Positions 7,764-51,739 of a stretch of 64,000 nt of DNA are shown one piece after another. Made by a program: the position numbers and the translations under genes. The notes beneath the pieces were generated by a model that worked only from the letters and a program-made list of their open reading frames with translations, was not told the DNA's origin and searched no databases. This DNA is from Takakia lepidozioides (Eukaryota; Plantae; Bryophyta). Location: positions 40,548,001 through 40,612,000 of the forward strand of contig CM060733.1 in the NCBI GenBank assembly GCA_030704615.1, given 5' to 3'. Every line of letters starts with the position of its first letter. Position 1 is the first letter of the stretch.

Positions 7764-7796
<33 letters not shown>

Positions 7797-10282: not shown

Positions 10283-12810
10283 CATGAGAGGGAGAGATCA
10301 GGAAACTTAAAAAAAAAAAATGTGGGGGGGGGGGGGGAGTGACTGAGCAGCTCCTCAGTCACTCCCCCCCATTTTATTTATTTATTTTTATTTTTCCTTT
10401 GATGTCCCTCTCTTCTCTGTCTCCCTCTCTCCTAGGAACTGGCATGTTGTTATCAGTATTGATTTCTTGTTCTTTCACCCATACTGGATGAAGTTTGATA
10501 GAGTTTCATCCATCCACTATCGGTTTTTCATCCATACCGGATGAGCCACCAGGATGGACACTGAATTACCGTTAGGATGATTTCTGGTTTTTTCATTCAT
10601 CTTTTATTGACTCTCATCCATACCGGATGAGTCACCAAGGAATGAAAAATTACCTCTATGAGGGTTGCCAACAACATCCTGTTTTTCATCCATACCGGAT
10701 GAAAAACTACCAGGATAATAATTTTTCATTCCTCTTTCATTGACTCTTTTTCATCCATACCGGGTGGTCTGGTGAGGAATGATGAATTACCTAGGTGGAG
10801 GTAAACCGCTGCCACGGATGATATACCCTAATTTTCATCCTGACAAGTGATCTGTTTATGGATGACGAGTACAGATGATTATGGCCTGGAATTGATCTTA
10901 ACTACCCCTAATTATGATTAATTACGGGGTGAAACCCTAACCCCTACCCTAAAACCTATTTTTAACTCTGCTATGGATGAAATCCGTCAGGTTAGAAGGA
11001 TGTTTTTTTACTGTTTTTCATCCTTCACGGATGAAAAATCGGGCCAGAAAAACCCTACGTTGTCTCTCCCGCTGTCAGAAGCACGAGATGTGCTTCTGAG
11101 CTCGCGGGGAGAGTGTTACGGCGGGCATGCTTTGGTGGCCGCCCCGTTTGTGGTGTCGTACCCGTGCTGGGCGAGCGCTTGGGATGCGTAAAGGCGGCGC
11201 CTTGTCTCTCTAGCAGCGGAAAACACTGTTGTGAATGCAGTGACATCTTCCCTCCTCTGGCTTTTAATTTTAGAAGTGGCATTTATGCTCGGAAGTCTCT
11301 CTCCCTCCCTTCTATTGCCTTGCAAGTTTGCCTGCTTTGCTTCATTGCTCATGTGCTTTGTGGAGGTGACTTGCCGCGGGTGGTGATGGTGCATAACCCT
11401 CTTCCCCAATCGCTTAAGGTGCCTTTGGAGTTTAGGGATCCTTGTGTTCTTATCTTCTTCACTTGCTTTTGAGATTCTTAGTTGACATCGATGACAAGTG
11501 CATGAGGGTCTGTGATTCACCTGGGGTTCCACAATCCTCACTAATCCGTTGATTTTGTGGGGGCTTGTGATGGGACCAGGTGAGGATCCTCACTTACTTT
11601 GAAATTTCTTGAGCATGCAGTTGGGGATATGGGCTGAGAAGACCTGTAAGTTATCGCGCCTTGAAGTGGCTGCTGCCTGTAGCCCCGAATTCAACCCGAT
11701 TGCTCCTGGTTTGGCATGCTACAACCTATATTTTGGCTTTTGTTTAGCCGTCGATGGGGCAGCTCGACCTGTCTGGCCTGTCTCCTGAGACCTACATACA
11801 GACCATACCCTATCTTTTGATCCTTGACAGCAGGGCATGTGGATTAATGAGCTAGGTTGTAATTTCTTTGGGCCATAGAGGATCTGGTTTTATGGGGGAC
11901 TTCCTCGGCGGGTTTGGGACTCTATGGACGTGGTGGTCTTGAATGTTATGGCGGCAGCCTGATAAGGCACCGACCTGCTCCTTTTTGGGCATGTTTCTGA
12001 TGTGTAATGGATCATAGTGAGGTGTTCTTTGCAAGCTTTAGCATGGACCTCTTGAAGGATGAGGATGGTAAGCTGTAATGGAGTCCTACCTATAGTTTTG
12101 GCCTTGTCATGACATCAAGCCTATGACCTGCAATCTGAGTTTTTTATGTGCCAAAGAGGCTGGATCTCGGCTGTTCAAGTTGCTTGTGTGTACAAGTCTT
12201 GAAGTTGCAATTTGATAGGTTGAATTCACATTCCCTTGACACCTTGTATGATTACATGTCTCGGGGTGAATACAAATGGTATGGAATCTATTTCATCATG
12301 CCCAAGTAGGATTGCTTGGAGGCATGTTTTGATTCTGAAAAATTGCAGGCTGGTCCTTATGCCTTGGCTGATGCATGACCTGCTGTAATTAAAGGCTGAT
12401 AAGATAAGATGCTGCAACCTGTATGTCATGCCCAAGGTGTATGTTTGAAAACGTGTCTTGAAATGGTAATAGGGCAGGCTGGACCATGGTACCTTTCCCT
12501 TTGCATGACCTCAGCACTTTGTGCTCTTTCAATACATGACCTACAGGTAAGGCATGTGGGCAGGCTGAACCAAGATGCTTTGAAACTTGCATGTAGGCAA
12601 CAATATCTTATCTTATCCCACACAAGAACGAACCCCGCCCTCCCACCCTGTTTTATCATGAATGATTGGGTGATGTCAATTGGGAAGCTATGACAAGAAT
12701 GTAAATGTTAGATGGTGCCCTGTTTTGGGCTGTTTATGTCAATAATTGACAATGACCTAAGTAGGGTCTTGTCCATGTCTTGACATTACATGAATATCTT
12801 CCCACTCTCT

Positions 12811-17490: not shown

Positions 17491-17681
17491 AAGATTTTTT
17501 TTAAAGAAAAATCTGAACAAATGATGGGTTTTTTTCACACATGCCGCGACCTGTTTGGGGTCGCATAGGCAATTAATGGTTAAAGAAAGAGTAGCCATTT
17601 ATTTCTCACTAGCCAGCAAAGATTTAGGGCTAGATGATTACCTCATAATCCTTTAGCATAATATAACCATAGTGAAGGTTA

Positions 17682-18111
17682 TGTCATGGTTTTAGTCATG
17701 GTTATCTAGAATTACCTACTTCTAGTTAACTAGGACATTTTAGATATTTATATTTATATTTTGTGTGTTGGGACTTCATTTGGTCTCACATGCCAAGTGA
17801 GGTGTCGAGCCTCACTTGAGACATGGAGATAGGTTTTCCCCTTGTGAGTGTTGAGGAGGCTCATCTTCTTGTAGTTGAGCCTCCATGAGCTTCTCTCACC
17901 TCCATAGCTCTAGGTATTGAGAGGGAATGTGTTGAGGGCTTTGTAGGGTGGATTCCTTTAGCAAAGGTGCCCTTGGCTTGACTTAGTTTATGTGATAGAG
18001 TGGATTTCACTTGGAAGGACTAGGGCTTGTTCTTCATGTGATTGCTTCATGCTTGAGAGCTTTCATTGTCTTCTACTTCTCTCATTTCTCATCTCTTATC
18101 ACTACAAGAAG
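17682..18111 (+). repeat. 5' LTR (segment shared with the 3' LTR)
   Basis: Matches 34704-35132 with about 5 transitions and 2 small indels by manual comparison. Confidence 0.92.
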
Positions 18112-19399
18112 ATCACCTTATGCTTGTGAGTGTGGAGTGTAAGGATTAGTTTTGCACTTGTATTTTAAAGAGGTTGAGAGCTAGGAGAATTTAGCTCTTG
18201 TATCACAAGGCTTGCAAGGGGTTGCAAGGAAAGGTGCTCGAGTATTGCATGCACCAAGGAGTTGGAGAGCTTGAGAAGAAAGCTCTTGAGTTACAAGATT
18301 TTGCAAGGATTGTAAGGAGGAAGTCTTGCGTGTGTGGAAGCATGGATTCTAGGGTTTGAGAATCCTTTGTATGCATTATGGAGTCGATGGTGTGCGCCAT
18401 GGCTTGTGGAGAGTGACTAAAGGCTTGTTAGTGCTCATTTCACTATCAAGCTAGGGTTAAGCAAGTTCAAAGTGTGGATGTTGTGGAAGAGAAGCCAAGG
18501 AGCTATATATGCTTGGGCTTGAAGAGGCAAGCACTTGGAGAGCACTAAGAAGCTCAAGAGGTTTTGAAAGGGAGCATGTGAAGAAATCTTCCAATCATGG
18601 TGGTGTGGAGCCAAGCTTAGGGTGCCATTGGAAGGGCTTGGAGAACATGTGGTGGGAAATCCTTGAAGGGAAATCATCATTCAATGTATGCATAACTTCA
18701 CCCTAACTATGTAATGTGACAAGAGGGGGAGGCAATACTTGGCTATTCATGCTCTTGGTAGTGCGAGCTTTGTGGTAGATAGTTGACCAAGCAAGTGGTG
18801 CATGTGTGGAGCATGTTCGCTTGAGTTTGTAAGTTCAAGTTTGAGAAGGGGAGCTCTTGAACTAGCAAGAGATGAAGGCCTTTGAGATCCATTTGTGTGT
18901 GAAGTGGAGAGGTGTTGATTCATGTTATGATGAAGGAGAGCAACACATAGGCCAAGAGGTCATGAAACATGCATTCAAATGACCACGAGGAGCACATGGA
19001 TGATGGATTGGTGCAAGACCCCAAATGAGGCATATGGCGTGAGAGTGGGATCCAAGGCGGATTGCTTGGGAGCATTATTGTAGGTGACAAGCATTGCTCC
19101 TACACATTGAGATAATTTGTGTTGATTTGGAGCAATTGTCAAGTGATGAGGAGACAAATGTATGATTGCTCGGCAATGGAGATATGGTAGTTTGCAATCA
19201 AATCCCAAGGACTAGAAAGGGGATTGATTTGGTGGACAATGACTTGCAAGTTGAGTTGGACCACTCTTGGTTGCACATTGGGGTGGAAGAGAGCAAGAAG
19301 ATGCCTCTTATGACCACCTAGAGACCATATTTTTGCTTGAGTAGAAGCATAGAAGTCAAGGACTTGCATTCTAGCTCTTCATTATAAACCCTAGTAGTG

Positions 19400-19800
19400 T
19401 ATGCTCAGACTATACCTCTGTTAGTATACCAAACAGGAGCTTGTCCCTTTGACTATACCTCTGTTGAGGTATCACCATATGTGAACCCTAATGTGAGACT
19501 ATACCTTTGTTAGTATACCAAACATGAGCTTGTCCATTTTTCTATACCTCTATTGAGGTATCACCATATGTGAACCCTAATCAGCTCAGACTATACCTCT
19601 GTTAGTATACCAAACAGGAGCTTGTCCCTTTTACTATACCTCTGTTGAGGTATCACCATATGTGGACCCTAATCAGCTCAGACTATACCTCTGTTAGTAT
19701 ACCAAACAGAACCCTCATTTTCAGACTATACCTCTGTAAAGGTATCATCAACGTAAGGGACCCTAGCAACCTCAGACTATACCTCTGTTAAGGTATCAAC
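19400..19800 (+). repeat. Tandem repeat (~90 bp unit made of two ~45 bp halves) in the Gypsy 5' untranslated region
   Basis: ACTATACCTCTGTT-type core repeated about 9 times, followed mostly alternately by AGTATACCAAAC and GAGGTATCACC. Confidence 0.9.
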
Positions 19801-20613
19801 AGTGAAAGGACTTAGTGAAATTTAAGGGCCTTTGGAGGATTGTTTGGAAGATATTTGAGGGCCCTTGGAAGAGTATTTGGAGGATCTTTGGGGTCCTTAG
19901 AGGAGTGTTTGGAGGATCTTTGGGGTCCTTGGAGGACCCTTCGAGGAGCTTTGGTGGACAATGTTGAAGAGCTCTTGAAGGATTGATTGAGGGATATTGA
20001 AGGATACTTGCCACGGCCATACAAGCGAGTGGATAGAGACAGGAGGGAGAGTGGTGGGATGAGAGCATTCTGGGGTTAGGAATTGCTTTAGTTTCTCTTT
20101 TCCATAGTCTTTCACCCTCTCTGTAGGCCAAAACCTTTCCGTAGGTGGAGGCAAGAGTCAGTCCGGGTTTGGGCTGGGGTGTCCTTGCAGGAGCGACACT
20201 GTGGAGTGTTTTTGGTGTGGGGGAGTTGCTGTCTTGATTTTCTTGTGTTTGGATCTCCTCCACGCCTGCATGCTTGACTGTGCGCCATGTTAGCTTTATG
20301 TGGGCGTTTGTTTTCATAGGAGGTTGGTCCGGATTTGATCACTGGCCAATCCTAGAGTATGCTGTCGGTGGTGAGGCTGGAGTGATGACCAGCAAGACCA
20401 CCAGTGTTTCTTCTATGGTGAGGCTGGGTTGATGACCAGCAGACCATAGGAGTGTTTGCGGTGGATGCAGGTGCAGGTACAGGTCTACGTTAGAAACCTA
20501 TTATTCCTGCTTGAACCAGTAGCCGCAACAAGTTCTTTACCCGGTTACCTTGTAGAAAGTGGGGATTAGAGACAGGTTGACAACCGGTTGGGTTGTGAGT
20601 TTTCATCACGGAG

Positions 20614-22614
20614 GTGCCACTAGCTGCTGAGGGGAGTGCCGGTACAAGCACCAGCGATACTAGTGGGTACACAAGACAAGGTGTGCGGTTTAGGCCACGT
20701 TCACCTTCAGTGTCTTCTAAGGAAGGTTCAGACTCGGAGTCAGGAGGATTCTCGCCGAGGGTGCAAGTCATTTCCGTGCCATTGTTGTGGGACACGATGG
20801 AGGAGACGTATGGAGCTACCAAGGGGCCACGTAGGTACTCTGGAGCTGTGGGCACCATCGAGCTTGATGACTTTATACAAGAGTTTGACAGTTGGCGTGA
20901 TTTGCAGCAAATGCGCAATCCACAATTGTTTACGCCCTTTATGGCGTGGAAGGGGCTATTCCAGCACCTTGAGGGGCCGCCCATGGATGATTACCATGAA
21001 TTTAGGCGGGGACATGCGGTGGAGATTGAGGAGTGGCGAGAGTATTGGTCACCTAACTATGTCTCAATTACTAGAGGCACAAGGGCAGCGGTGACACCAA
21101 CAGCTACACAAATATCTCCAACTACAAGCACTAGTAGTGAAACAAGTAGTGCCGACACTTCTGCAGGTGGTACCAGTTCAAAAGGTGCTACTACTCCTCC
21201 TGCCACAATTACAACACATGTGCCTAGATTCAACCCGGTGGTGGAGTTCTTCCAGGAGTTGCGGAGGAACTACCAAGGTGTACGGACAGAGAAGCTGCGA
21301 AGTTTGCAAGACTTCCAACGCAAATCCAGTGAGAGCTTGCGAGAGGCCTACACTCGTATGAGGCGCTTGATAAGTGTGACCCAAGGGGTTACTGAAGCTC
21401 AGGCAGTCCAGTTCTGGTATGGAATTTTGGACAAGGAGCTCAAGAGAAGGGTGCGGGATGCAACCCTGTTACAAGCGGCCCAACCCACATTAGCGGATGT
21501 GTTTCTGCTGGCTGAATGGATTGAGCTCAACATGGTGGAGGAGCGAGTTGTTACCATTGGATTTGGCAAGGACATGCCTGCACGAGGTGCAGCTGCCAGC
21601 CCACAGACACAAGGGACTGCCCAACAGCGTGGTCAGGGGGGCAAGGTTTCCCAACCCAAGTTCCATGGAGCTTACAGGGGACCTCAGGTGCAGAGGCCCG
21701 TGGCATCTTTTGCAGGCCAACAACAACCAGGGGTGATATGTTGGACATGTGGAGGACCCCATGTCAAGAGAGATTGCCCAGAGAGTGGCAGAAGGCCGGC
21801 ACAAGCACAGCCTGCACAGTTGCAGTGTGGGCATTGTGGCAAGTATGGGCATGGAGATGCCTAGTGTTATGATTTGCATCCTGAGTTGCGCCCAGGCCAG
21901 TTCCAAGGGAACAATGGTGACCGGGGGCAAGGTGGACCAGTCCAGAGAGGACGAGGTGGTCGGGCACGAGGTGCAGGCCAAGGGCAAGCTCAACATGGCC
22001 AAGGACGCGGAGGTCAGGGTGTTGACCAAGACATGGCCAACCGGCTTTAGCAGCTAGAGTAGAGGCTCGATGCTATGGCTACAGCTCAGGTGGAACCGGC
22101 TCCCAGGCGGGATGGTCCACCTCCTGCTCCTGAGGGAGGAGATATGGGAGGCATGGGATTCATGTGTGGAGCGGCACTACCACTGGTGCAGGTGGAGTCT
22201 GCTGCAGCCGTGACTCGAGGAGCAGCACGAGTTCCTGAGCCACGAGGTGCAGAGGTGGAATTGGATCCACAGCGTGGGGAGGCAAGCCGTCAGGTGAGGC
22301 TTCCTCAGTCATTCACATTGGCGGAGACAGTGTCGACCCCATCCATGGCATCTAGTTCTCGCCCGACTGTTACCGAGGCGGAGGTTACTATGCCATTGGG
22401 GAGAGCTACACGTGCAGCACTAACACCTGCTACCAAGGCTAGTGCAACCGGTGTGTTATTGGGGGCAGCCACCTCTGTGTGTCAAGCCCCACTGTTCTCG
22501 GCAACCATGATTGTGACGCCGGGGGTAAGACCAGCTGCAGTGTTCAGACTAGCAACAACACTCTGCGAGAGTGGGAGGTCACTTCATCTTCTGCGGAGTT
22601 ACTGGAAGTTGTAG
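20614..22614 (+). pseudogene. gag: Retrotransposon gag with two zinc knuckles (two in-frame TAG stops)
   Basis: Capsid-like QRKSSESLREAYTRMRRL…QFWYGIL; knuckles CWTCGGPHVKRDC and CGHCGKYGHGDA*C. ORFs 20614-21864 and 22075-22614 share a frame. Confidence 0.88.
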
Positions 22615-23369
22615 TGGCAGAGGGATCCTCGGATTTGAGGGTCACAACTACCACGGCTGCGCCATGGCAAGCTGCAGCTACAAGGTTGACGGAGCTGCCA
22701 GCTAGGCCAGCCTTTGAGCGCGCCATGGTGACACCTGGAGTTGTCTTGTTAGACAACCAGGGAGACATTTTCACTTTGAGTGGACCGGTAGGCAAGAAGT
22801 ACCGGCCACTGCGGGTCTTGTTGGACTCAGGAGCTCAGCCACTGATGTTGGGCAGAGCTGCTATTGCAGGTTTGGGCCTCATGGAGGCGGATATAGAGCC
22901 TTGTCCTTTCCAGATACAGACATCTCTGGGAGGATCAGAGCAGGCTCGGGGCATGACACGACGTGAATTGGCCATTGGACTACAACCAGATCATCCTGTA
23001 GATGGCTCAGTGATGCAAGCCAAGGCCATTGTGACAGACGCGGTCTCTTACGATGTCCTTGTTGGTGGGGCAGTGTTATATCCCATGGGTTTCACCCTGG
23101 ACTTTTGGGAGGAGTCAGCATCCTACAGGCCTGGATGGCAGTCAGGGGATGGTCGTCGTGCACAGCTCCTTGTGACATTCATTGGGGGTATTGCGGCTAC
23201 CCAGCGGGGCAAGATGCCAATACTAGCCGCCTTTACAGCTGTAGTTAGTTGGCTTGGAGAGTTGCTGGAAGACAATGCCCATGCAGAGGATGTGCCACCT
23301 CCAGCAGAGCAGGATGACATGCATGGTACGGCGGAGTTGCCTACCATGGTTGCTCACACTCCATTATAG
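22479..23369 (+). CDS. Retropepsin-like aspartic protease region of pol
   Basis: VLLDSGAQ catalytic motif and YDVLVGGAVL closing motif. Confidence 0.88.
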   Translation: MSSPTVLGNHDCDAGGKTSCSVQTSNNTLREWEVTSSSAELLEVVVAEGSSDLRVTTTTAAPWQAAATRLTELPARPAFERAMVTPGVVLLDNQGDIFTLSGPVGKKYRPLRVLLDSGAQPLMLGRAAIAGLGLMEADIEPCPFQIQTSLGGSEQARGMTRRELAIGLQPDHPVDGSVMQAKAIVTDAVSYDVLVGGAVLYPMGFTLDFWEESASYRPGWQSGDGRRAQLLVTFIGGIAATQRGKMPILAAFTAVVSWLGELLEDNAHAEDVPPPAEQDDMHGTAELPTMVAHTPL

Positions 23370-23384
23370 GGTACGAGCAAGGAT

Positions 23385-24785
23385 TTGCAGCAGGCTGCTG
23401 ATGGACGGGTACAACAAGCCTGGGTAGAGGCCTTCGTACCGTCAGGAGAAGAGGAGAGTGTGGTGATTGCACTAGGACCACCTCAGTTGTCGCCATCGGA
23501 CACCACACCTCTTGTGTGGCAGTGCCCGGATGAAGGCATATGCCTTCTGGACTTGTTTGGCGGGATCAGCACTGGATTGGCTGCAGTACTGCAGGCAGGT
23601 ATACAAGTTCGACGTTACCTGTATGTGGAGAGGGATGAGACTGCACGACGCGTCTCACTATGCCATGTTGCTCAGTTGGTACAGCAGTACCCTGATTTGT
23701 TGCCAGTGTCTGCAGTTCGTGGATACCAACAAGCCTTGCCAGCAGACATTTCGTTGCTGGGGGTGCAGGATTTGGAGCGGGTTGGCTCCATTGATCTGGT
23801 AGTGGCAGGTTGGCCCTGCCAAGGGCATTCATCAGCCGGGCATGGCAATGGATTGCGAGACTCGAGGACAGGTCTGTTTTGGGAGATGGTGCGGATTTTG
23901 CGCCACTTGCAGCTTCATCAAGCTGTATCTCCAGCATACATCTTGGAGAATGTGCCACTGATGGGTGATTCTCGGGCCAAGGTGATGGCCAGTGTGCATC
24001 AAGTCCGGTCATGGCTTGGGTCAGCAGTGTTGCTGGATGCAGCTGCAGTGGGGTCATGGGCTCATCGTCCACGGCTATGGTGGACTAACTTGATGCCACC
24101 CGCACTGCTCAAGCGTGCATTTGATGGGGTGCAGCGGCCAGCACACCTCACAGTGGATAGCATTTTGGACACAGGGAGGCAGTCTCAACGTGTGAGACAC
24201 GATGACCGTTCGCCTTTGGCAGTGGTCAATAGGGTGGGTCAACCACGAGCAACATTACCTACACTGCTCAGCTTCCCAGGATCCCATGCTTTTCTGGATG
24301 GTGGACCTGGCCTCTTGTGGGATAGCCAATTGCAACAATTAGTGGAGCCCAATGCTGACGAGCGCGAGCGGGCGATGGGTTTTACCACAGGTACCACGGC
24401 GGTGCCATCTCTTTCTGAGGCATCACGTCGTCAGGTGTTGGGGCAAGCAATGGATCTCAACTTGACCTGGATTATCAGCTTGGCTATGGTTGAGCAGCGC
24501 AGAGTACGGAGTACACTTCCTTTCATGGTCTCCTTGCCTACCGAGACGGTACAGGCAGCGAGTGGGGGCGAGCAGGTGAGGACCACGAGGTGCAGGCCGC
24601 ATCCATGGCACACATGGGAGGTGCTCGAGGTTCAGAAGGAGTTGGCAGCCAAGGCGGCGGTAATGGATCAGGTTGGGGATTTTTCTCGGATTGAGGAGGT
24701 CCTCAAGGATGGGATGATGGGGCAGGATGAGACATTGTCACTGACAGAGGAGGTAGTGGTCACTGCTCAAGAGGTTGCAGCATAG
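23385..24785 (+). CDS. DNMT3-like C5-cytosine DNA methyltransferase domain inside the Gypsy pol (domain ~23541-24460)
   Basis: Motifs in canonical order: I LLDLFGGISTG, II RYLYVERD, IV DLVVAGWPCQGHS, VI YILENV, VIII AHRPRLWWTNL, IX ERERAMGF, X QVLGQAM. Same reading frame as PR upstream and the RT start downstream. Confidence 0.93.
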   Translation: MQQAADGRVQQAWVEAFVPSGEEESVVIALGPPQLSPSDTTPLVWQCPDEGICLLDLFGGISTGLAAVLQAGIQVRRYLYVERDETARRVSLCHVAQLVQQYPDLLPVSAVRGYQQALPADISLLGVQDLERVGSIDLVVAGWPCQGHSSAGHGNGLRDSRTGLFWEMVRILRHLQLHQAVSPAYILENVPLMGDSRAKVMASVHQVRSWLGSAVLLDAAAVGSWAHRPRLWWTNLMPPALLKRAFDGVQRPAHLTVDSILDTGRQSQRVRHDDRSPLAVVNRVGQPRATLPTLLSFPGSHAFLDGGPGLLWDSQLQQLVEPNADERERAMGFTTGTTAVPSLSEASRRQVLGQAMDLNLTWIISLAMVEQRRVRSTLPFMVSLPTETVQAASGGEQVRTTRCRPHPWHTWEVLEVQKELAAKAAVMDQVGDFSRIEEVLKDGMMGQDETLSLTEEVVVTAQEVAA

Positions 24786-24911
24786 CAACCACGGGACGCG
24801 TCTTCTACCTCTAAGCATGCTGGACTCAAGGTTGCAGTCACGGAGGACAACTGGGAGCCTGATGTTGGACCTATAGTCACCGGAGGAGAGAGACGACGTA
24901 TACGGCGGTTC

Positions 24912-25739
24912 TTGAGGGCTTACAGGAACTACTTTGCCTTCAGTTTGAAGGACTTAGGAGCACTGAAGGGTCAAGAGATTCGCATTGACTTGGCTACTGA
25001 CACGCCAATCTTTTGGAGACCCTATAGATACAGTGACACGGAGAGGTCCTTGATTCAGATGAGAACTCAGAACCTTTGGGAGGCTGGTTTGGTGGAGCTA
25101 TCTGGGGAGAGTATGCTTCAGCCACAGTGATGCCAGCCAAGAAGGATGTCTTTGGCAATTGGACGGAGAGACGTATGTGCGGTGATTACCGGCCTGTAAA
25201 TCGTCAGTCCAAGTCCGATATGTATGCCATGCCAACACTAGAGGAGATCTTTGATGCCATTGGGCATGCCAAGGTCTTTAGCACGTTGGCTTTACGATCC
25301 GGATATCACCGGTTGCCGATCAAGGAGGCGGATAAGCAAAAGACAGAATTCTGGGGGATCAATGAGCACGGGAAGGATTGCCTATACCAGTGGCGGTTCT
25401 TATCATTTGGGCTTAAGAACGCTCCGGCAGAGTTTCAGAGAGTCATGGACAAGATTCTAGCAGGGGTGGAGTTTGCTCGGTGCTACATAGATGACATCAT
25501 CATCTTTAGTGCTACGGTGGAAGAGCATGAGAGACACCTTCAGGGGGTATTTGAGCGCTTGAGGGCGCACGGATTGAAGTTACATCCGGGAAAGTGCAAG
25601 TTTTTCCACAACCAAATTAAGTATCTGGGTCACATGATATATCCTGGAGGATTGGGGGTACAACAGACTAAGGTAGAGTCCATTGCACAGGTTCCACGCC
25701 CCACGGATGTGAGCCGAGTTTGAGCTTTCATGGGGTTAG
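24912..25739 (+). pseudogene. Gypsy reverse transcriptase (one frameshift at ~25105, stop at 25721, then interrupted by CACTA)
   Basis: RMCGDYRPVN, FGLKNAPAEFQRVMD, CYIDDIIIFS, KCKFFHNQIKYLGH. Confidence 0.95.
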
Positions 25740-26589
25740 CACTAGAAGCATTTGTGTCTTTTCCGAATCGACTGCATGTCCAAAACCACTGAGGGAACAA
25801 CTTTGAGATGTTTGTTACTACTGCATAGTCGTAACGGATAAATTCACATTTCTAATGGCGGATAGAAGTTGCATCAATGACTCCGCAGTCGGCACAATAT
25901 TCGCGGCGATTTAATTCAATTACGTAAATTGTTTTTTTTTAAAAACAGCAATTACAAGTGGTTTTAAGCACTAGAGAGCGACTCTTAACAACTAGGCATT
26001 CATTGCACACCCTATTCAAAAATGGAATTTTTATAAGTGCTCCACATGGCTCATGACGTGGAATATTTTAATGTATTTTAGGGCTTGTGTGGCTCGTAGA
26101 GATTGTTCTAATCGTCGGATGTAAAATGATCTAAGGGTGGAAGAGTAACTTTGTCCTTTGCCTAAATTTGTCTAAGTGTTGGGAGAGGGATGGAGGCTTG
26201 AGAGAGAGACGAACAAGTGATGCGAGAAGGACGAAGACCAAATCGAGGCCCATGTCCTATTGTCGCAAGCGTTTATGGCGTCAAGGGCGCATTATGTGCA
26301 AATGTGGGCTCTTGGCTCCCCTTTGTACCATGATTTGGTATTCTTCCTGATGATCACAAGGTTCTTGGGGGAATCAGCTTGGTCTTAGCAACCCATATTT
26401 TAATCTCTGCCCGCTCAGCTGCACCGTGGTGGTTCTTACGAACCAATCCCACATTACCTGACTAGAGATACAAGCAGCACGCACAAGAGGTCTTCTTGGG
26501 TTCATGGTCAGTCTAATCCGCAATGGGTCATGACACAAGGTAGAGGACAATGTGGTGAGGGCACCTTCTTCTTCGAGCTATTTCAGCCT

Positions 26590-27403
26590 GTTTTGCCGAG
26601 ATGTAGTGTCGTGGAGTGCGATGCTTGCAGGGTATGCACAGCAGGGACGTGGGATGGAGGCTTTGGAGACCTATGAAGTTGCGAAGGGAGAGTTTGATAA
26701 CATGGCTGAACAAGATGTTGTCTCAAGGAACACGCTGAATCTTGCAAGATATGGCCAGCATGTGTGCGGGATGAGGGCATTGGAGACATATGAGCAAATG
26801 TTGAGAAGAGGTGCAGCCTGACCGGGTCACGTTCATTTGTGTTTGCAATGCATGTGCAAACCTGGCAGCCCTGGAGACTTGGTAAAGGGCAAAGGGTCCA
26901 TCGTGACATTGTCAAAGCTGGAACTGTACCAGATGTAACAATACCTCGTCGACATGTATGCCAAACGTGGGAGCATTCCCTTGTGGACAAGGAGTGTTTA
27001 ACAATATGGCTGAGCGAAATGTGGTGTGGTGAAACGTGATGATCGCAGGACATGCACAACATGGGCGGGGATTGCGGGTTTTGGAGACCTATGAGCAAAT
27101 GATGTGGGTCTAGGGGGTGAAGCCCGAGCACATTACGTTTGTTTGTGTTTGTAGTGCATATGTGAGCCTGTTGGAGAAGGGCAAAGAGGTCCATGGTTGC
27201 ATCGTCAAAGCTGGAATTGTGGTAGATGTCATTCTGAACATGAATACCTTCTAGATAGGGAGTGTTCAACAATATGGCTGAGCGAAATGTGGTGTCGTGG
27301 AAAGTGATGATCGCAGGACATGCACAACAGGGGCGGGGATTGTAGGTTTTGGAGACCTATGAGCAGTTGATGTGGGAGGGGGTGAAGTCCGACCACATTA
27401 CGT
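26590..27403 (+). pseudogene. Scrambled PLS-class PPR gene fragments carried by the CACTA (resuming at 30078-30222)
   Basis: RDVVSWSAMLAGYAQQGRGMEALETYE, (P)DRVTFICVCNACANLAALE and GQRVHRDIVKAG, with many frameshifts. Confidence 0.88.
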
Positions 27404-30222
27404 TCAGAGAGTTCAAATGCCTCTCCACCATGACCTTGCTTAGCTAACCATGCCTTGCTGATGTTGTTGTCTTGCACTTGAGCTGTTTTTGGACACTGGC
27501 TGGAACATCCACAAGGCGGCTCTGCTCGAGAGAGAAATCAGCTTGAATGCAGGGGCAGATTTTGAGATCACAATCGCCACTTAGAACGTTGTTCTTTGCA
27601 CCGGCATGGCATATCAACATGCATATCAGCCCAAACTCATTACTCCGTGAGCCTTCCACTGCCGGAGTGTGCCCATTCAAGCCAGATCTTCGAAACGCAG
27701 GGATGGAACGGGGTTTTGAAACCAGCATTGCCTAATTGGATACCCAATTCAGCTCTGCATCTTGGTCCATTAATCTGCTGCACATTGTGAAGTTTTCTGC
27801 CCGTTCACCGCAAGTTGAAGAAGGAGTATTCTTAAAACACGGGTACTCATAATCTGAAAATGGCTCCAGCTTACGTTGCTTGAGTGCAAATATGAGTGTG
27901 GTTGGCTTGGCAGCTTTACATCTGGTCCATCCCACTCGATATGATGAGCAGGTTCAGCTTGACTTCTCTCACACAAAAGACGCTGCCAAGATGGGGTTTG
28001 TTGCCCTAGATGACTTCCCGTCGTTGTTCTGGGCTGCAACATACAATTAATCTGGCCCATGGCGAGGGGCCTTGCCTTCCACCAATCATCTGTAAGTCCT
28101 GTGAAACTATTTTTGTGGCAGTTTGTAAGCAGTGGGCAGCAATGGTGGGCTGTTGTAGGATTTGATGAACTCAATGCTGTGTATTGACAGCAACCCCTCA
28201 TCTCTTATGCAAGCATTCAACAAGCCAAGTTGACTGCAGAGCATATTCAGCCCCCCGCGTTTCTAGTTGCCTAATGTTCTTCATCTCCTGGGTAGAGCAT
28301 TTTCTAGGGTCTCCATCTGTGATGACACACTATCTTCTCATGTGGTTCAGCTTCTGGTCTTGCTCTTGTTTGCACCACCCCAATGAAGGGCAGTTCCCAC
28401 CTGCTTGATTTTTCTCTATATGGTTGTCTTGGGTCTTGGCAGGGTTTCCCACAACCGCCTTTCCTTTTCAGACTGCCAGTCATCAGCCTCGTTCTCCAAT
28501 GCTTCACTTTCTTCCCAAGTGAAGTGCTCTCCTCTTTTATGCTTCAACGTCCCTGCATGTGTCTTTTCCTTCATGTGGTGCTTTCGAATGAATGAGCACT
28601 GATTTACATCTGTTGGCAACACTTACGGTGTCCCTTTCCTTGCATGCCACTGCAGGCCCGCATTGACTTTCTTGGCAGGGAAGTCTCCTCCTTCTCCCTC
28701 ATTTTCTGGCTCTGTTGGTGCCCCACTCACCATGCTATCAGGGCTGCACTTATTTTGTGGTGTTGCGCCAGCCAAGGGCGATCTTTCACTGGTCCGATTG
28801 TTGGCAACAGCTGATTGGAGTCTTCTTGGCAGAGTCTCCCACGAGCTCCCATCAATTTCAGGCATCAGGTTTTCTACCCTGCCCTTCCACTTTTCATAAG
28901 CGAGGTGCCTGTCTTCCTCCCTTTCACTCTTCAGCCTCTCAGGCAGATTTTTCTTCATGCGATTGCTGCTCCCATACTTCCAGTCCTTGTTTAATTTTCT
29001 CCAGCCATCACCCTCAGATTTGACAAGGTATTGCTGCCATTCCTTGTGTCTTTCCTCACTCCCAGCTGCTGGTTTTATCCCAGATTTACCTCTCATCCTT
29101 GCCTGGGGTTTTGCTTGCCAAACAGCCCTTGTGTGGGGAACTTCAACGAAAGGCAACATCTCATTCTCAGCTCCTGTCTTTGTACCTCTTTGCAGCAGTC
29201 CAGCCTCGGGTGCCTCACTTTCTGATTGCTGGGTGCATTCTTTGCCGCCAACCTTTGACAAGAAAGTGTGCTCCATCTTCCTCATCTCCTACTGGTTCCC
29301 TTGATGCTTCACCTCGTATGTCTTCCTCCTCATGTTTTAGCAGCAGCTCCCATGCTTGAATTGCTACTTTTCCTCGTAGTTGATCTTGTGCTTTCTTTTT
29401 CTCCGTAGCTAATCAACAGTTTTGTCTTGGCAGCTCCCTTGCCATGAGTGCCTTGTCTCACTGCATCTCCCTTGGCTGCCCACCATCCGTGGAGTCTTTC
29501 TTGCACTATTCTGACCCTCGTTGGCATGCACTTTGCTGCGATGCCCCACATGTATTTGTGCTCCCTTTAATCATCAACATAGTGCTCCAGAGCCAGTTCC
29601 TCATTGTTGACCAGTTGACCTTCTCAGCCCTTGGACCCCATTTTCCCTTCTCCCATGTTGCCTCGTCTTTCTGCTTCATCATTTGCTTTACTTGCACGAT
29701 GTTGCTTCTTCCCTACAGCTCATCATGTGTTGTGGCTCTTTCCCATGTTGCACTCACTCCCATCATACGTTGTGCAGTTGATAAGACTGAGATGAGTTGA
29801 TGCAGGATAGGGGGAGGGCTTGCTGGTGTATGTTGTCCGATAGGCCCCATGCACAGAGTCAAAGCTGGAAGTCAGCCTTGCAAGGACCCAAGTGAGAGAA
29901 GTCTGGTGGGGGTAGCATCTTGGGGGATGGCAGTTAGGGCAATGTGTGTCTAGGGCAATATATGTCATAGCAGCGGGTGATGTGCTGCCAATTTTGAGGA
30001 TAGAGACAGCCTGTAAGCTGTAGATTTGTATAAGTGGTTTCTTCTGACACATATTGCTCCCAGTTTGCCACAACTAGTTGTTTGCGTTTGTAGTGCATGT
30101 GCGAGCCTGCTGGGGAAGGGCAAAGAGGTCCATGGTTGCATCGTCAAAGCTGGAATTGTGGCAATGTCATTCTGAACAATACCCTTGTGGACAGGGAGTG
30201 TTCAACAATATGGCTGAGCGAA

Positions 30223-31325
30223 GGATAGAGTGTAATGACTGCTAATGAAGGCACCTTCTTCAATTTCACCTTGTTTTCCCCTCTTATCAGAATCGCCCAT
30301 AATTATTCATGTCTGAATTCTGCAAGTTAGCTGGTTGAGTGAAGCTTTGATAGTTTGGAGTGACTTTGACATGATTCTGCCAATGTGACAACAGGAAAGT
30401 ATCAGAAACAGGTAACACAGACGAGGAGAAGTTGTGGAATGAATATTTTTCTGACCCCAGTCAATGGTGGGACAATCGAGGCAAGAAGGTGAATGTTTGT
30501 TGGATTATAGAGAGTAGCAGATGCAATTGAGCGTAGGAACTAGTGTGATAAGTTGAGTTGGGTGCTTCCTAGAACAAGTCTAGGCTGTCATCGTCAACTG
30601 CTAGCAACAAGGCAAGGTTGTATGCATGATTCGTGCGAGGCATGGATAGTTGAAGGAGCAAGGATAGAGTGTGGGTGCAGATTCACCCAAGAGGGCCAGA
30701 CTTCAAGCTCCAGATTAACTATGAAGCTACAAGAAACCTGCATGGGTAGATGGTCAACTGGCAGCAACGGCACAATTGATAAAATCAGACATTGTTAATG
30801 AAGGCATCTTCTTCAGCACATTTCACCCTGTTTTTCCCTCTTATTAGAATCGGTCCAAAATTTCCATGTTGAATTATGCAAGTTAACTGGTTGAGTGAAT
30901 CTAGTTTGGAGTGACTTTGACATGATACTGCTATGTGACAACAGGAAAGTATCAAAAAACAAGTAATAGACATGAGGAGAAGCTGTGGAATGAATACTTT
31001 TCTGCCCCCAGTCAATGATGGGACAACCGAGGCAAAAAGGTGAATGCCTGCTACATTTCAGAGAGTAGCAGACGCAATTGAGCATATGAACTAGTGTGAT
31101 AAGCTGAGTTGGGTGTTTCCTAGAACAAATGTAGGTTGTTTTTGTCAGCTACTAGCAGCAAGGCAAAGATGAATGCATGATTTGTGCAGGGGCATGGATA
31201 GCTGAAGGAGCAGGGATAGAGTGTGGTCCAGATTCATCCTAGAGGACCAAATTTCAAGCAAAAGATTTACCTATGATTCCCTGTGGATCAATAACTACAA
31301 GAAACCTCCATGGGTAGATGGTCTA
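30223..31325 (+). repeat. Two copies of a ~550 bp repeat, also present as about 4-5 partial or full copies at 51330-53910
   Basis: Shared landmarks GAAGGCAYCTTCTTC, TAGTTTGGAGTGACTTTGACATGAT, GAACTAGTGTGATAAG and CATGGGTAGATGGT. Confidence 0.85.
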
Positions 31326-32176
31326 TTCCGTGGAACTCACTGAAGTCTTGCATTATGAGGATCAGAACTGCTTGACTTGCACGAGGCCTTGATCCTTAGG
31401 CAATCCCCAGAGCAGCAGTAGCTTTTGGGCTGCTTTTTTACTTTGTGTTTTTCATTTTGTCCCATAAGCTCTTTGAGCTTTCCGCAGATGTTATAAAGTA
31501 CCATTTTGTTTCATTTCATTCATTTTCATTTCATTTTGTTTCATGGCATGTCTTTCATCGTTTGTGCATTTCTAATGCATGATTAGTTCTCTTGTATGGC
31601 ATTACTAGTCGACTCACTACAAACACCGAAACTCCAAAGCATGAATCACTATGAATGATTGTTCAAGTAATTTCGAACACTTCATGTAAAGTAGTAAAGC
31701 AGTGGTTGCGCCAACTTCCGCAGTCGCAATTGCCACTGGGCATGTAACACTGCAAGTTATGTGGTCTACTACCACGTGGTGCCCCGGGCCCGTGGCCACG
31801 TGGCAGCAGTGGTGCTCGTCGTGGCGCCGCCACGTCGGCATCCACATCGTCGTCCACGTCCGCGTCCATGTGTCACCGCGCTTCAGTGAGTCGGTCCACT
31901 CATCCGGAGGGAAAAGTCAAAGTCAGCCCAAAAGGTCAGACACACGGGCGGCCCGCCTGGTTACGCCACGTGGTTCTTCAGCATTAATCGCATTAATCGC
32001 TGAGCAGTTGTTCGCGCGTCTGCGTCCTTTACCACTCCAATCATTGGATGTCCAACCCAACTACCACGTCTGTTGTAACTAGTCTGTTGTAACTTCCAGT
32101 CGATCCCAGTTTTTTGACTTTTACGACTCAAAATGAGTCGTTACCCCAGTGATAAATGACACGAATGGTTCTAGTG

Positions 32177-34359
32177 TAGCAAACTATTATAGACGGTTTG
32201 TTAAGGGATTTAGTGCCATTGCAAAGGCTCTAACCAAGCTGACCAAGGTGGACCAAGAGTGGCAGTGGGAAGGTGAGCAAGAACAAGCTTTTCAAGAGCT
32301 CAAGGCGAGGTTGACCTCGGCGCCCATCTTGAGACGACGTATCAGGGGGCGTCCTTTTCAGTTGCATACAGATTGGAGCATGCTGGGGCTTGGAGCGGTG
32401 CTCACACACGTGGATGATGAGGGAAGAGAGTTCGTAGTGGCTTATGCTAGCCGCTCGAACAACGTTGCAGAGTCTAAGTATAGCTCATATAAGGGAGAAT
32501 GCTTAGTTGCAGTGTGGGCCGTGGCACACTTCAGGTGCTATCTATACGGCAATCTCTTCACCCTTGTCACGGATCACCAACCACTCAAGTGGTTGATGGA
32601 GTCAGACAAGCTTACGGGAAAGCTTGCACGGTGGGCACTCATCCTTCAAGAGTATGACTTTCAGGTGGTGCATCGACCGGGTTTGGTCAATCGCAATGCA
32701 GATGGGTTGAGTCGCAATCCATGCACGAGCCAGCAGGATGACACTGGAGCTCGGTGGCATGGTGAGACGGACGAGGAGATGGTGCCCGGATGGCATGCAT
32801 CTGCATTTCTGTGTATCTTGGCAGCGGAAGGCCAGGTTGGACTTGCAACAGGAATGACTGTAGATCAAGTGTCTGAGGACCCTGAGGCCAGCAATGAGCA
32901 AGGTGGCGCCAAAGATATACATGAGGATTCAGTTGTGTTGGACTACCTCCGCACTGGAGCCACTGCAGCCACTGTGACTGCCAAGAAGAGGGATCGGATC
33001 CTACAACGAGCCAAGAGGTTAAAGTGGGAGGGGATACACCTGCTCCGAGTGTGGGAGGATGGTCGAGTGAGGATTGTGCCTCACCCAACACAGCGGGCAC
33101 GGTTAGTGCGGCATGCCCATGAGGAGTTGGGGCATTTTGGGGTGTGACGCACTCATAGTCTACTGTAGGGGCAGTATTGGTGGCGTGGTATGCACACAGA
33201 GGTGCAACAATTTGTGGCTAGGTGCATGGTGTGTGACAGGGTGCGTGCTTCATTCAACGCCCCTACTCCACAATTGCACCCTCTTCCGATCATGGGATTG
33301 GGCTACAGGTGGAGTCTTGACTTTGTAGGGCCGTTGCCACTGACCATGTGCCACAACAAGTACGTGTTGGTGATGGTGGAGCACTTCTCCAAGTGGATTG
33401 AATTGGTTCCATTGCCTGATAAGGCTAGTGAGGGAGCTGCGTATGCATTCTTGGATTGTGTGCTTAGCCGATTCGGTGCTCCAGCTGAGGTACTCACGGA
33501 CCAAGGGAGAGAGTTCTTGGGGGAGTTTCAGGTTTTGTGTGACAAGGCCTTGATAGACCACCGCACCACTTCTCGAGATCATCCTGAGGCCGATGGCTTG
33601 GCAGAGAGAGTTGTTCAGACAGTAAAGAGGGGTTTGCGCAAGTATGGCTTGCAAAAGGGACACCTAGGAGATTGGGACCTTTAGTTACCCTGGTTAGCCA
33701 TGGGCTACAGGTTCAGCAAGCAAGCATCACTTGCCTCCTTCTCACCATACTTTCTTCTCTTTGGCCGAGAGCCGGATTTGCCTACATCCATTCGCAGAGA
33801 AGCTGCTACAGTTCTTAGCCTTGACGATCCGGACGTGTGGGCACGGGCATGTGAGCAGCGTGCAGAGTTGTTCAAGAAAGTCATGCCCATGGCTTTCGAG
33901 AACCTTGCCATTGCACAACATCGTGATACATTGAGGTATGCTACCATACGTGGTGGGGGCTATCGTCCTGGTGTTCAGAGATTCAACCCTGGTGACTATG
34001 TCTATCTGCAGCAGACTGCTCCTACGACATTGGATGTGACTGCAGGACGTGTTATTTTGAGGGTTCGAGAGGTTTTGTCCTCAGGCGTCTTGGTCTTGGA
34101 GGGTCGGGATGGCATAACTTGGAAGGACCATGTGCGTAATTGTGCGCCATGTCACCTTCCGAATGTCGATGGCAGGATTGACCCAAACCTGGCAGTGATA
34201 TCTGCAAGTTTGAAATGCATGTTGTGTGGGTCTGCTAGAGGGGCAGCCACCATGCTGGTGTGTGATCGATGCTCTAGAGGTTGGCATATGTGATGCTTGA
34301 CTCCACCTCTTGAGATGGTTCCTGATGGGGATTGGTTATGTCCGTATTGCATTGGATAG
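32177..34359 (+). pseudogene. Gypsy pol C-terminal part: RNase H, integrase and C-terminal PHD finger (several in-frame stops)
   Basis: RH: LHTDWS, LVTDHQPL, NADGLSR. INT: HEELGH…CMVC, WSLDFVGPL, VLTDQGREF, GLAERVVQT. PHD: CMLC…LVCDRCSRGWHM*CLTPPLEMVPDGDWLCPYC (34216-34350). Confidence 0.93.
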
Positions 34360-34605
34360 TGGGAGTGGATACAACCATGGAAGGCTAACAAGAAATGCAA
34401 GGCCAAGGTACTAGGAGACCAACACACGAGATCCTGACTCAAGTTCACAGATTGCAAGACGGCGACTAACGATGGGGTTGCTCTTGTACCCAGCCTCTTG
34501 GTCTATAGAGTTTGAGTACAATAGGGACAGTGATAGAGGACTTAGTACGGTTGTGGCTATTACATCTTGTAGCTATCTGGAGTTAGAGGGACCTAACCAC
34601 CAGCT

Positions 34606-34615
34606 AGGGGGGCGA
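34606..34615 (+). other. Candidate polypurine tract
   Basis: AGGGGGGCGA followed by T and then TGTGG, ~90 bp upstream of the 3' direct repeat. Confidence 0.55.
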
Positions 34616-34703
34616 TTGTGGTATAGCTTTCTAGGATTATGTGCTTAGATTGTGTGGTGGACAGCGATGTATGTTGTGGCACGATGCTTAGGTGCACGAC
34701 AGC

Positions 34704-35146
34704 TGTCATGGTTTTAGTCATGGTTATCTAGAATTACCTACTTTTAGTTAACTAGGACATTTTAGATATTTATATTTATATTTTGTGTGTTGGGACTTCA
34801 TTTGGTCTCACATGCCAAGTGAGGTGTCGAGCCTCACTTGAGACATGGAGATAGGTTTTCCCCTTGAGTGTTGAGGAGGCTCATCTTCTTGTAGTTGAGC
34901 CTCCATGAGCTTCTCTCACCTCCATAGCTCTAGGTATTGAGAGGGAGTGTGTTGAGGGCTTTGTAGGGTGGATTCTTTTAGCAAAGGTGCCCTTGGCTTG
35001 ACTTAGTTTATGTGATAAAGTGGATTTCACTTGGAAGGACTAGGGCTTGTTCTTCATGTGATTGCTTCATGCTTTGAGAGCTTTCATTGTCTTCTACTTC
35101 TCTCATTTCTCATCTCTTACCACTACAAGAAGTGAAGTGCACGACA
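34704..35146 (+). repeat. 3' LTR
   Basis: TGTCATG…CACGACA followed by the TSD GTTA. The first 429 bp match the 5' copy. Confidence 0.9.
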
Positions 35147-35819
35147 GTTATTATTCTTCCTTAGGATAGCTGTCATAAAGTCTCTCAGGCACCTAGCCCA
35201 ATCGTGACAATAGGATTTGGCTCATGATTGCCTATATTTTCTTCAATCTAGGTTTCCCTGGATCTAAAAACTAGCACTTCGCAAGTTTTTCTATGAAGAC
35301 TCAAAGTGATCGAGTCCACATGTCTACCAATTCCGCCATGCCCCCTTTTGTCTATGAAAGCAGGGCCAGGTAGCCATAGGAGCTCCCAAACCCGACACAC
35401 TTATGGGCTATGACTCCAAATATCAAATAACAAATAAGATATGTAAGTAGCTTTTCACTCCCACACTCACAATTTAGAAGCTCGTCACAGTTTGGTCAAC
35501 AATGCATTTAACAATATCACTCTCCCGCACTACTCTCATACTCTCATTCCCTTCACAGTTAACAACATCCTTCCTTATCAGTACTTCACCACCATTCCCA
35601 CACATTCTATATCCTCTCATCATAAAATGCCACAACAAACTATATATTTAAAAATTAATGTTTTTCTTAAAAATAATTCATTGCTGAATGTTACACGAAA
35701 TCATGTAATCATAATATGTCATAAATGCTAGTTACAAAATGAGTGGTTAAATCAACGCCAATTTTCCATCTAATTATAAAAAATACAATCAGAATCAAGT
35801 AGTTAAAACAACTCATAAT

Positions 35820-50387: not shown

Positions 50388-51739
50388 AAAAAATTGCTTA
50401 TAGGGTTTGCAAGAAGGTTAAAAAACTTAAAAAAGTTGCCCATCACGGTAGCCGTGAATAGAATTAGAGTGAGCGGGAGGGAGGGAGATAGAGAGAGAGG
50501 GCTGGGACTTAGAGCGAGCGAGCGGGAGGGAAGGCAAACATGCATGGGAGGCCGCAGTTGGAGCAACCTTCGCATCTGAAGCAAGCAACCCTAGAAACGC
50601 TAGGGTATGTGTGCGAGGAGGTTTTGGCTGGGAGCTCGTCGTTCTTGGGAGAATCAGCTTGGTCTTAGCAGGCCGTGTTTCAATCTCTACCCGCTCAGCT
50701 GCACCGTGGTGGTTCTCACAGACCAATCCGACATTACCTGACTACAGAAACAAGCAGCACACTGAAGAGGTCCTCTTGGGTTCATGGTCAGTCAAATCCT
50801 CCATGGGTCATGACACAAGGTCGAGGACAATGTGGTGAGGGCACCTTCTTCTTTGACCTATTTCAACCTGTTTTGCCCTCTCATCTGACTCGGCCCTTCA
50901 TTTGCAACACGGAGCAGAGTTGGCATGAGATTTTTAAATATCCTTCACGATGGTGCGACAACCGCAATGGCAAGGTGTGGCTTTTCCTTAATGTACGATG
51001 TGAAGAAGTTTGTCCATCCTGCAAATGTGGGCTGTTGGCTCCTGTTAGTACCATGATTTGGTATTCTTCCTGATGTTTCAAGGTTCTTGGGAGAGTCAGC
51101 TTGGTCTTAGCAGGCCGTGTTTCAATCTCTGTCTGCTCATCTACACCGTGCTGGTTCTCACAGACCAATCCGACATTATCTGACTACAAGACACAAGCAG
51201 CACACACAAGAGGTCCTTTTGGGTTGATGGTCGGTCAAATCCTCTATGGGTTCTTCTTCGACCTATTTCAGCCTGTTTTGCCCTCTCATCAGACTCGGCC
51301 TTGAGATGCATATTGAATTATGTAAGTTAGCTCGTTGCTCATTGATAAGTAGGGTTGGGGGTGTTTGCTGGAATGATTGTTGTATGCATGATTTTGTGCA
51401 GAGGATAGATAGCTAAAGGAGCAGGGATAGAGTGTGGAAGAGGGCCAGATTATCTCTGATTCCCTGTGGAAGGATAGATACAAGAAACCTGCATGGGTAG
51501 ATGGTCAATTGGAAGCCGCAGCAGCAGCGGCACAATTGATAAAATCAAGCACTACTAATGAAGGCACCTTCTGAAACACATTTCACCCTATTTTCCCCTC
51601 TTATCAGAATCGGCCCTAAATTTTCATGTTCAATTTTGCAAGTTAGCTGGTTGAGTGAATCTAGTTGGAGTGACTTTGACATGATACTGCCAATGTGACA
51701 AGAGTATGCATTGAACCCATTGGTAGCGGGATATTGGGA

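Follow-up and report, generated by a model that had tools for sequence, protein, structure and literature searches.

The window analysed here, a stretch of 64,000 nucleotides from Takakia lepidozioides (Bryophyta; contig CM060733.1, positions 40,548,001 to 40,612,000), contains a decayed copy of a high-copy Ty3/Gypsy retrotransposon family that carries a DNMT3-like cytosine methyltransferase (DNMT) domain between its protease (PR) and reverse transcriptase (RT). Comparison of this copy with its relatives suggests that the family encodes Gag, protease and the DNMT3-like domain in one frame ending at a conserved stop codon, which is likely read through to RT, RNase H (RH), integrase (IN) and a PHD finger; on this sequence-level evidence, we consider it probable that the methyltransferase is made and packaged at the level of Gag and that it methylates the new cDNA. 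The combination of Gypsy and DNMT3 is already known from KnitGypsy-Dnmt3; new are the conserved layout with a likely leaky stop, the land-plant hosts and the anatomy of the ends. Copies of the family were studied through public contigs, and 80 of the 307 confirmed relatives from a metagenome scan were retained; L numbers denote metagenome loci and P numbers protein matches.

The methyltransferase domain

The features flanking the domain and its junction with RT are the following:

22443..23366, plus strand: aspartic protease (LLDSGA; PF13975, E 0.001)
23367..23369, plus strand: TAG, a private lesion of the window copy
23520..24500, plus strand: DNMT3-like C5 cytosine methyltransferase domain, lacking one codon near 24460
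24783..24791, plus strand: conserved TAG followed by CAA CCA (CAR-YYA readthrough context), end of the Gag-PR-DNMT open reading frame (ORF)
24786..25739, plus strand: reverse transcriptase (PF00078, E 7e-30), with a frameshift near 25103-25105 and a stop at 25721

The ORFs for protease (22443-23369), methyltransferase (23370-24785) and the start of RT (24786-25130) share a common frame and are separated by single TAG codons at 23367 and 24783, coordinates that agree with a preliminary description of this DNA made from its letters alone. That description also placed a C5 methyltransferase with its key motifs between protease and RT, and LFGG, the glutamate of motif II, GWPCQ, ENV, HRPR, RERAMGF and LGQAM are indeed all present. 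The profile search that it proposed returns PF00145 for ORF 23370-24785 (E 5.2e-13, 49.6 bits against a cut-off of 22). Motifs I, IV (PC), VI (ENV), VIII (RxR), IX and X are unpermuted, with no DRM-type rearrangement, and the missing codon falls directly after motif X. The likeness to DNMT3 is borne out by DNMT3A as the top sequence match in the PDB (E 7e-11, with DRM at 3e-5 and HhaI at 5e-4) and as the top Foldseek match in the PDB (E 1.7e-20, TM 0.72) to a predicted structure with a pLDDT of 89.8. Sequence and structural model together indicate that the domain is a real DNMT3-like methyltransferase.

The domain is a trait of the family, as had been proposed, and not a one-off capture: 49,557 contigs of run X1 match a 5.4-kb stretch of the element and cover the DNMT throughout, and homologues occur in liverworts, Sphagnum and charophytes. 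Among the metagenome relatives L024, L025 and L032, dN/dS is 0.09-0.13 for the DNMT, the purifying selection that the preliminary description had left to be computed, with 0.09-0.13 for the protease and 0.04 for RT; between the window and the moss-associated copies, dS has reached saturation. A Ka/Ks below 0.2 and conserved key residues in the DNMT are shared with KnitGypsy-Dnmt3. Motifs IV, VI, VIII and IX are retained in 206, 216, 210 and 172, respectively, of 225 full-length homologues.

The conserved stop before reverse transcriptase

The two TAG codons differ in kind. At 23368, 99.9% of the X1 depth differs from the window, as do runs X2, X5 and X7, whereas positions 24781-24791 show no variant at or above 1% in four of four runs, though 24779, 24780 and 24793 vary. 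The earlier reading of both TAGs as decay therefore stands for 23367, which is private to this copy, and fails for 24783, which is fixed in the family.

Forty-two loci with a DNMT identity of at least 45% were taken as close relatives, of which 37 are assessable; the junction is uncovered or deleted in four, and L064 cannot be placed. The stop at the position of 24783 is retained in 36 of the 37 and is followed by CAR-YY in 35, resembling the CAR-YYA signal of the tobacco mosaic virus (TMV) type of readthrough (PMC2194720). Thirty-three of these are direct matches, distributed among TAG CAA CCC (19), TAA CAA CCC (8), TAG CAG TTA (2), TAG CAA TCA (2), TAG CAA CCT (1) and TAG CAA CCA (1), and two further stop and CAR-YY junctions are displaced by insertions. 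A pattern match in L028 lies in RT after a deletion and was excluded from the count. For comparison, CAR-YY follows only 3 of 219 other in-frame stops in the close loci and, across the window, 43 of 5600 stop triplets. The exact CAR-YYA is found in the window, L024, L025, L032, L036 and L061, and the moss-associated subfamily has CAA CCC or CCT. The second codon past the stop specifies Pro, Ser or Leu while YY is retained, which argues for constraint at the level of the nucleotides.

The organization of better preserved copies is consistent with this placement of the stop. L024 has two ORFs in the same frame, a Gag-PR-DNMT ORF of 1369 aa and an RT-RH-IN-PHD ORF of 1047 aa, with this stop alone between them, and in L032 no other stop occurs over the 1010 codons that run from the protease to the end of RT. 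Relatives have a single Gag-PR-DNMT ORF of 1278-1369 aa, and the liverwort sequences P0001, P0003, P0004 and P0010 (Marchantia, Calypogeia), which are protein models only, terminate at the same place. No in-frame AUG follows the stop in the window copy or among variants at or above 1% up to 24850. The first ORF is thus likely to be Gag-PR-DNMT, followed by a conserved, likely leaky stop and then by RT-RH-IN-PHD.

Stems 3' of a stop codon play a role in readthrough, and folding of the junctions predicts one here:

24796..24899, plus strand: long-range RNA stem downstream of the stop, predicted in 13 of 14 folded junctions

Counted from the first base of the stop, the predicted stem begins at a distance of 13-14 nt. 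It involves the same RT codons in all 13 junctions that have it, which represent three subfamilies whose 5' arms differ; among sliding windows of the same elements, 0-4% do as well.

Known readthrough cases run at a few percent; at such a rate, Gag, protease and DNMT would be bulk products of the element, and RT and integrase would be rare ones. A stop placed after the DNMT puts the methyltransferase at the level of Gag and not at the low level of RT, which makes packaging in bulk more plausible; the enzyme would enter each particle in many copies, the protease may free it beside the new cDNA, and it would likely methylate that cDNA there. Readthrough, packaging and enzyme activity are in this sense inferred.

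Several observations weigh against this interpretation. L026 has no stop at the junction, L064 is unplaceable, and the loci are mostly copies of one subfamily, some of them the same insertion twice, so that the count amounts to about five independent subfamilies and not 36 events. The CAA CCC of the moss-associated subfamily is one letter from the consensus, and an in-frame ATG two codons past its stop would allow reinitiation. The stem was defined post hoc from the folds, its z-scores, which range from -0.2 to -3.9, are weak for the window (-0.2) and L016 (-0.5), and L025 lacks it. In a distant clade, at about 40% identity, none of 17 in-frame loci has a stop at the junction; together with Klebsormidium P0465 this clade carries DNMT and RT in one frame, which indicates that the stop is not needed for carrying a DNMT. 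The gag-protease junction of this clade is too decayed to read.

One alternative, unlikely in our view yet of some weight, accepts readthrough and holds that the DNMT does not methylate its own cDNA, acting instead on host chromatin or the insertion site, or serving as a DNA-binding or protective module, for example at the CG of the CACGACA end. In yeast, the Gypsy DNMT of Klebsormidium failed to methylate DNA, a result called inconclusive in the available text of its report (PMC5890265), and decay in the moss-associated copies (CG 0.18, CHG 0.22, CHH 0.06) resembles ordinary host methylation, with no element-specific methylation signal in their mutation-context counts. The PHD finger on the integrase would also suggest contact with chromatin. 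Against this, retention of the catalytic motifs IV, VI and VIII in most homologues, at the counts given above, argues for catalysis, and fusion to Gag places the enzyme at the site of cDNA synthesis.

It is quite improbable that RT-RH-IN is instead expressed from a separate message or start, whether by splicing with the TAG as acceptor or within an intron, by reinitiation at a nearby AUG or from an internal promoter; in that case, too, the DNMT would be made at the level of Gag. Ogre elements provide a precedent for splicing, the TAG|C after a U-rich run in moss-associated copies resembles a 3' splice site with the ATG two codons on, and the Marchantia models P0008 and P0012 bypass the stop by predicted introns. 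These two models skip different stretches, however, and the family of the window, L024, L032 and L061 have neither a nearby AUG nor a U-rich tract. Splicing is not excluded by the eight TAA loci, whose G-to-A rate of 0.33 lies within the 0-0.38 of other TAG sites. Neither CAR-YY nor the 3' stem has a function in splicing, yet both match readthrough signals (for CAR-YYA, PMC2194720). A single open PR-DNMT-RT polyprotein with both TAGs as decay, the ancestral form proposed in the preliminary description, holds in the distant clade, is stated for Klebsormidium in the reply to reviewers of PMC5890265 and fits the decay at 23367, but it is exceedingly improbable and is refuted for this clade because the stop before RT is conserved in a readthrough context, invariant in the four runs, kept in all but one of the assessable relatives and the sole stop in the coding region of L024.

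Element ends, decay and surroundings

The ends of the element are composed of split repeats, here called A and B:

17678..17681, plus strand: left target-site duplication GTTA, equal to 35147-35150
17682..18111, plus strand: repeat A1, left end of the element, starting TG; putatively the 3' part of U3, R and U5 (98.1% to A2; unique flank upstream, no B)
17863..17875, plus strand: putative self-primer, presumed transcript 5' end (13/13 complementary to 18101-18113)
18101..18113, plus strand: putative primer-binding site for self-priming, no tRNA-type TGG
34602..34615, plus strand: polypurine tract (PPT) adjoining B1, the same in relatives
34616..34701, plus strand: repeat B1, putatively the 5' part of U3, ending CACGACA
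34702..34703, plus strand: 2-nt spacer of the internal CA-GC-TG junction
34704..35132, plus strand: repeat A2, extending 11 nt into a copy of the primer-binding site
35133..35146, plus strand: short B2, right end of the element, ending CACGACA
35147..35150, plus strand: right target-site duplication GTTA

The element does not have two complete, identical long terminal repeats (LTRs) with a PPT directly before the terminal TG of the 3' LTR, and its ends are non-standard for Gypsy. The A repeats, previously taken for complete LTRs, are only part of a split LTR in the layout A-coding-PPT-B-nn-A-B. Their identity (5 substitutions and 2 indels in 431 columns) agrees with the 98-99% from which the copy had been called young; its many private coding lesions call for caution about that age. 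The ends read TG...CA, and target duplications agree in seven of the ten elements listed, with L047 failing, L026 agreeing in 3 of 4 and L077 interrupted. Twenty loci have B after the coding region: eight with full B-A-B, two with A and a short B (L058, L078), seven ending after B1 and three deleted, cut or interrupted. The window has A-coding-B-A-B with a short B2, and B does not precede A at the left end in the window or in any of 26 loci.

Bases 3' of A1 are complementary to a site within A over 13 of 13 positions in the window and over 15-17 in 10 of 20 relatives, against null maxima of 8-12, and L034 (17 nt) and L049 (15 nt) also have this arrangement. Such pairing is what self-priming predicts, and reverse transcription should then give an LTR of the form B-nn-A. 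Self-primed and PPT-primed reverse transcription would yield cDNA with this LTR at both ends; joining of the cDNA ends would create the A2|B2 joint, and integrase opening the CA-nn-TG site within the LTR would leave A-coding-B-A-B with TG...CA ends. Most copies have an exact A2|B2 joint, and in others it contains primer remnants or deletions, as end-joining would leave. A clear end-to-end cDNA joint, A-primer remnant-B, lies inside another copy at L027:5531-5819. The genomic form would accordingly be permuted, with its opening at CA-nn-TG, which points to end-joined cDNA as the form that integrates.

In a plain 2-LTR circle the two junctions are equivalent, but only one appears to be used, as the left ends without B indicate, and this counts against the proposed route. 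A serious competitor, which we put somewhat below even chances, traces A-B-A-B not to a free 2-LTR circle but to template jumping in the course of reverse transcription, or to repair by the host once linear cDNA has integrated at an internal junction, with A-coding-B arising from B1 x B2 recombination or 1-LTR circles. The A-B-A-coding-B form predicted by a symmetric circle was not seen, the loci ending after B1 are seven of 20, and for retroviruses the circle-junction model was dropped in favour of linear DNA (PMC11054761, available text). These routes would also require an integrase cut inside the LTR, however, and the exact joints of A end and B start with primer remnants are a trace of end-joining.

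Outside the junction and ends, the element comprises the following:

20599..22614, plus strand: gag region containing zinc knuckles, interrupted by stop codons and by a frameshift near 22572 (PF03732, E 0.002)
25740..32176, no strand assigned: later CACTA-type insertion with PPR fragments, foreign to the retrotransposon (ends CACTAGAA/TTCTAGTG, 3-bp target-site duplication TAG)
32180..34360, plus strand: RT connection, RNase H and integrase with a PHD finger at the C terminus, interrupted by stop codons (PF17917, E 1e-33; PF00665, E 1e-14; PF00628, E 0.007)

The Pfam matches to RNase H, integrase and PHD finger span 32137-34293. The order Gag-PR-RT-RH-IN is that of Ty3/Gypsy, and the rve integrase is of the DDE type, with no tyrosine recombinase as in DIRS; no chromodomain is matched in ORF2 of L024, which has a PHD finger instead. 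Several stops, the frameshifts near 22572 and 25103-25105 and the CACTA-type insertion show that the window copy is dead. Contigs of other copies run directly into RNase H at 25741, that is, without the 6.4-kb insertion. The insertion contains repeated fragments with a WWDNR motif, with related pieces again at about 50600-53900, and no Pfam-supported transposase was seen in it; a PPR fragment in the window has E 4.5e-7, and these fragments we take to be of the PLS type. Four tandem copies of an 89-92 nt unit lie at 19403-19790, within the long 5' untranslated region of the element.

Elsewhere in the window, ORFs on the minus strand at 56420-63175 match RVT_1, Chromo and RNase_H (PF00075), have a strong GC skew and belong to another retroelement, with no integrase or recombinase match in the ORFs scanned there. 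Upstream of the element are blocks duplicated at distances of 5.4-7.7 kb, and tandem arrays of 192 nt (3907-5350 / 10504-12757, 6836-8688).

Relatives, known systems and significance

The closest named protein homologues are from Calypogeia fissa and Marchantia polymorpha at 74%, in keeping with the land-plant lineage suggested in the preliminary description. Further named homologues come from M. paleacea, Riccia sorocarpa, three Sphagnum species, Closterium, Klebsormidium nitens, Monoraphidium and Chromochloris, and the RT-RH-IN-PHD portion is matched at 64% by a Coleochaete scutata transcript. The matches listed in three protein searches (73, 120 and 120 rows) include no named fern or seed plant, and viral contigs gave a single weak locus, L001. 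P0167 and P0543, copies of a eukaryotic element filed as Obscuribacterales and Synechococcales, are probably mis-binned.

A quick, unrooted tree of 110 rows, all element copies, was built for the DNMT; it excludes partial domains and most members of clusters, together with 59 of the 104 rows from the integrase side and 7 of the 21 that were unplaced. The window DNMT groups with liverwort and moss-associated copies at 100% support and lies far, across long branches, from Klebsormidium P0391, which is homologous and has the domain at the same position in the element; P0391 and P0465 are homologues with the order PR-DNMT. This grouping and the PPR fragment in the window both point to a host that is probably a land plant other than a seed plant. 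The DNMT occupies one of two positions, the interval between protease and RT, for which the named cases are all streptophyte, or that between RNase H and integrase (Chromochloris and many contigs), and one branch with 99% support parts the two sets. Many Gypsy-PHD polyproteins (P0036-P0067, P0270-P0402), one of them named Chromochloris, have the same DNMT between RNase H and integrase, and DNMT3-Gypsy elements with a shifted domain appear to extend to chlorophytes. In Klebsormidium, the Gag-PR-DNMT of P0391 (KFL_013780020) ends 12 residues past the domain with RT in a separate model, P0440 (KFL_013780010), from a contig of equal length, and P0465 joins Gag-PR-DNMT and RT in a single model; P0058 and P0446 also bear on this split, which is possibly a second, independent one.

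KnitGypsy-Dnmt3 of K. nitens (de Mendoza et al. 2018, PMC5890265) likewise combines Gypsy domains and a DNMT3-like domain with a DIRS-like repeat layout and purifying selection on the DNMT. Its DNMT lies in the same ORF as RT and RNase H, whereas here a conserved stop in a readthrough context stands between them, and the land-plant hosts, target duplication, PPT position, self-primer and internal attachment-site (att) junction described here are absent from the available text of PMC5890265. TMV, soybean SIRE1, murine leukemia virus (MuLV) gag-pol and Candida Tca2 (PMC2194720) provide the likeness of an in-frame stop between two retroelement ORFs with six 3' nucleotides fitting CAR-YYA; here the stop follows Gag-PR-DNMT, so that an accessory enzyme and the protease lie upstream, and readthrough is predicted from sequence. 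Self-priming Ty3/Gypsy elements (Tf1/Sushi and plant Tcn1; PMC6317226) also lack a tRNA primer site, are predicted to self-prime and have non-seed-plant hosts, but the present family differs in its PHD finger in place of a chromodomain, DNMT domain and split LTR. DIRS-order elements, SymbioDIRS-Dnmt3, DAM-LTR and EpiLTR (PMC5890265; bioRxiv 10.64898/2026.05.21.726589) share the A-coding-B-A-B layout or a retrotransposon-borne methyltransferase. The split-repeat DIRS kinds use a tyrosine recombinase, in contrast to the DDE integrase and 4-bp target duplication of the window element, and the EpiLTR DNMTs are DNMT4-related and accompanied by an adenine methyltransferase (bioRxiv 10.64898/2026.05.21.726589). 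In their available text, PMC12344493 and the same preprint give a host range only as 'streptophytes', and in the accessible literature, subscription papers and Repbase entries aside, no land-plant DNMT-Gypsy element, its readthrough or its end structure was found described.

Taken as a whole, a widespread streptophyte Gypsy clade in liverworts and mosses, including M. polymorpha, may load its particles with Gag-level DNMT3 through a leaky stop, methylate its own cDNA before this arrives at chromatin and integrate through CA-nn-TG in an end-joined LTR, a composite proposal that we advance tentatively and regard as doubtful in its entirety. The split ends suggest a DDE integrase using a junction inside the LTR, a route that was set aside for retroviruses. 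Why transposons keep an enzyme that silences them has been a question since 2018, and the position of the stop offers a first handle on it, predicting a methyltransferase at the level of a structural protein and abundant in particles, while the sister clade makes its DNMT in frame with RT. Bryophyte DNMT gene counts may be inflated by copies of the element. Many copies are annotated as hypothetical genes in M. polymorpha, a genetic model, which makes the question of the DNMT testable there.

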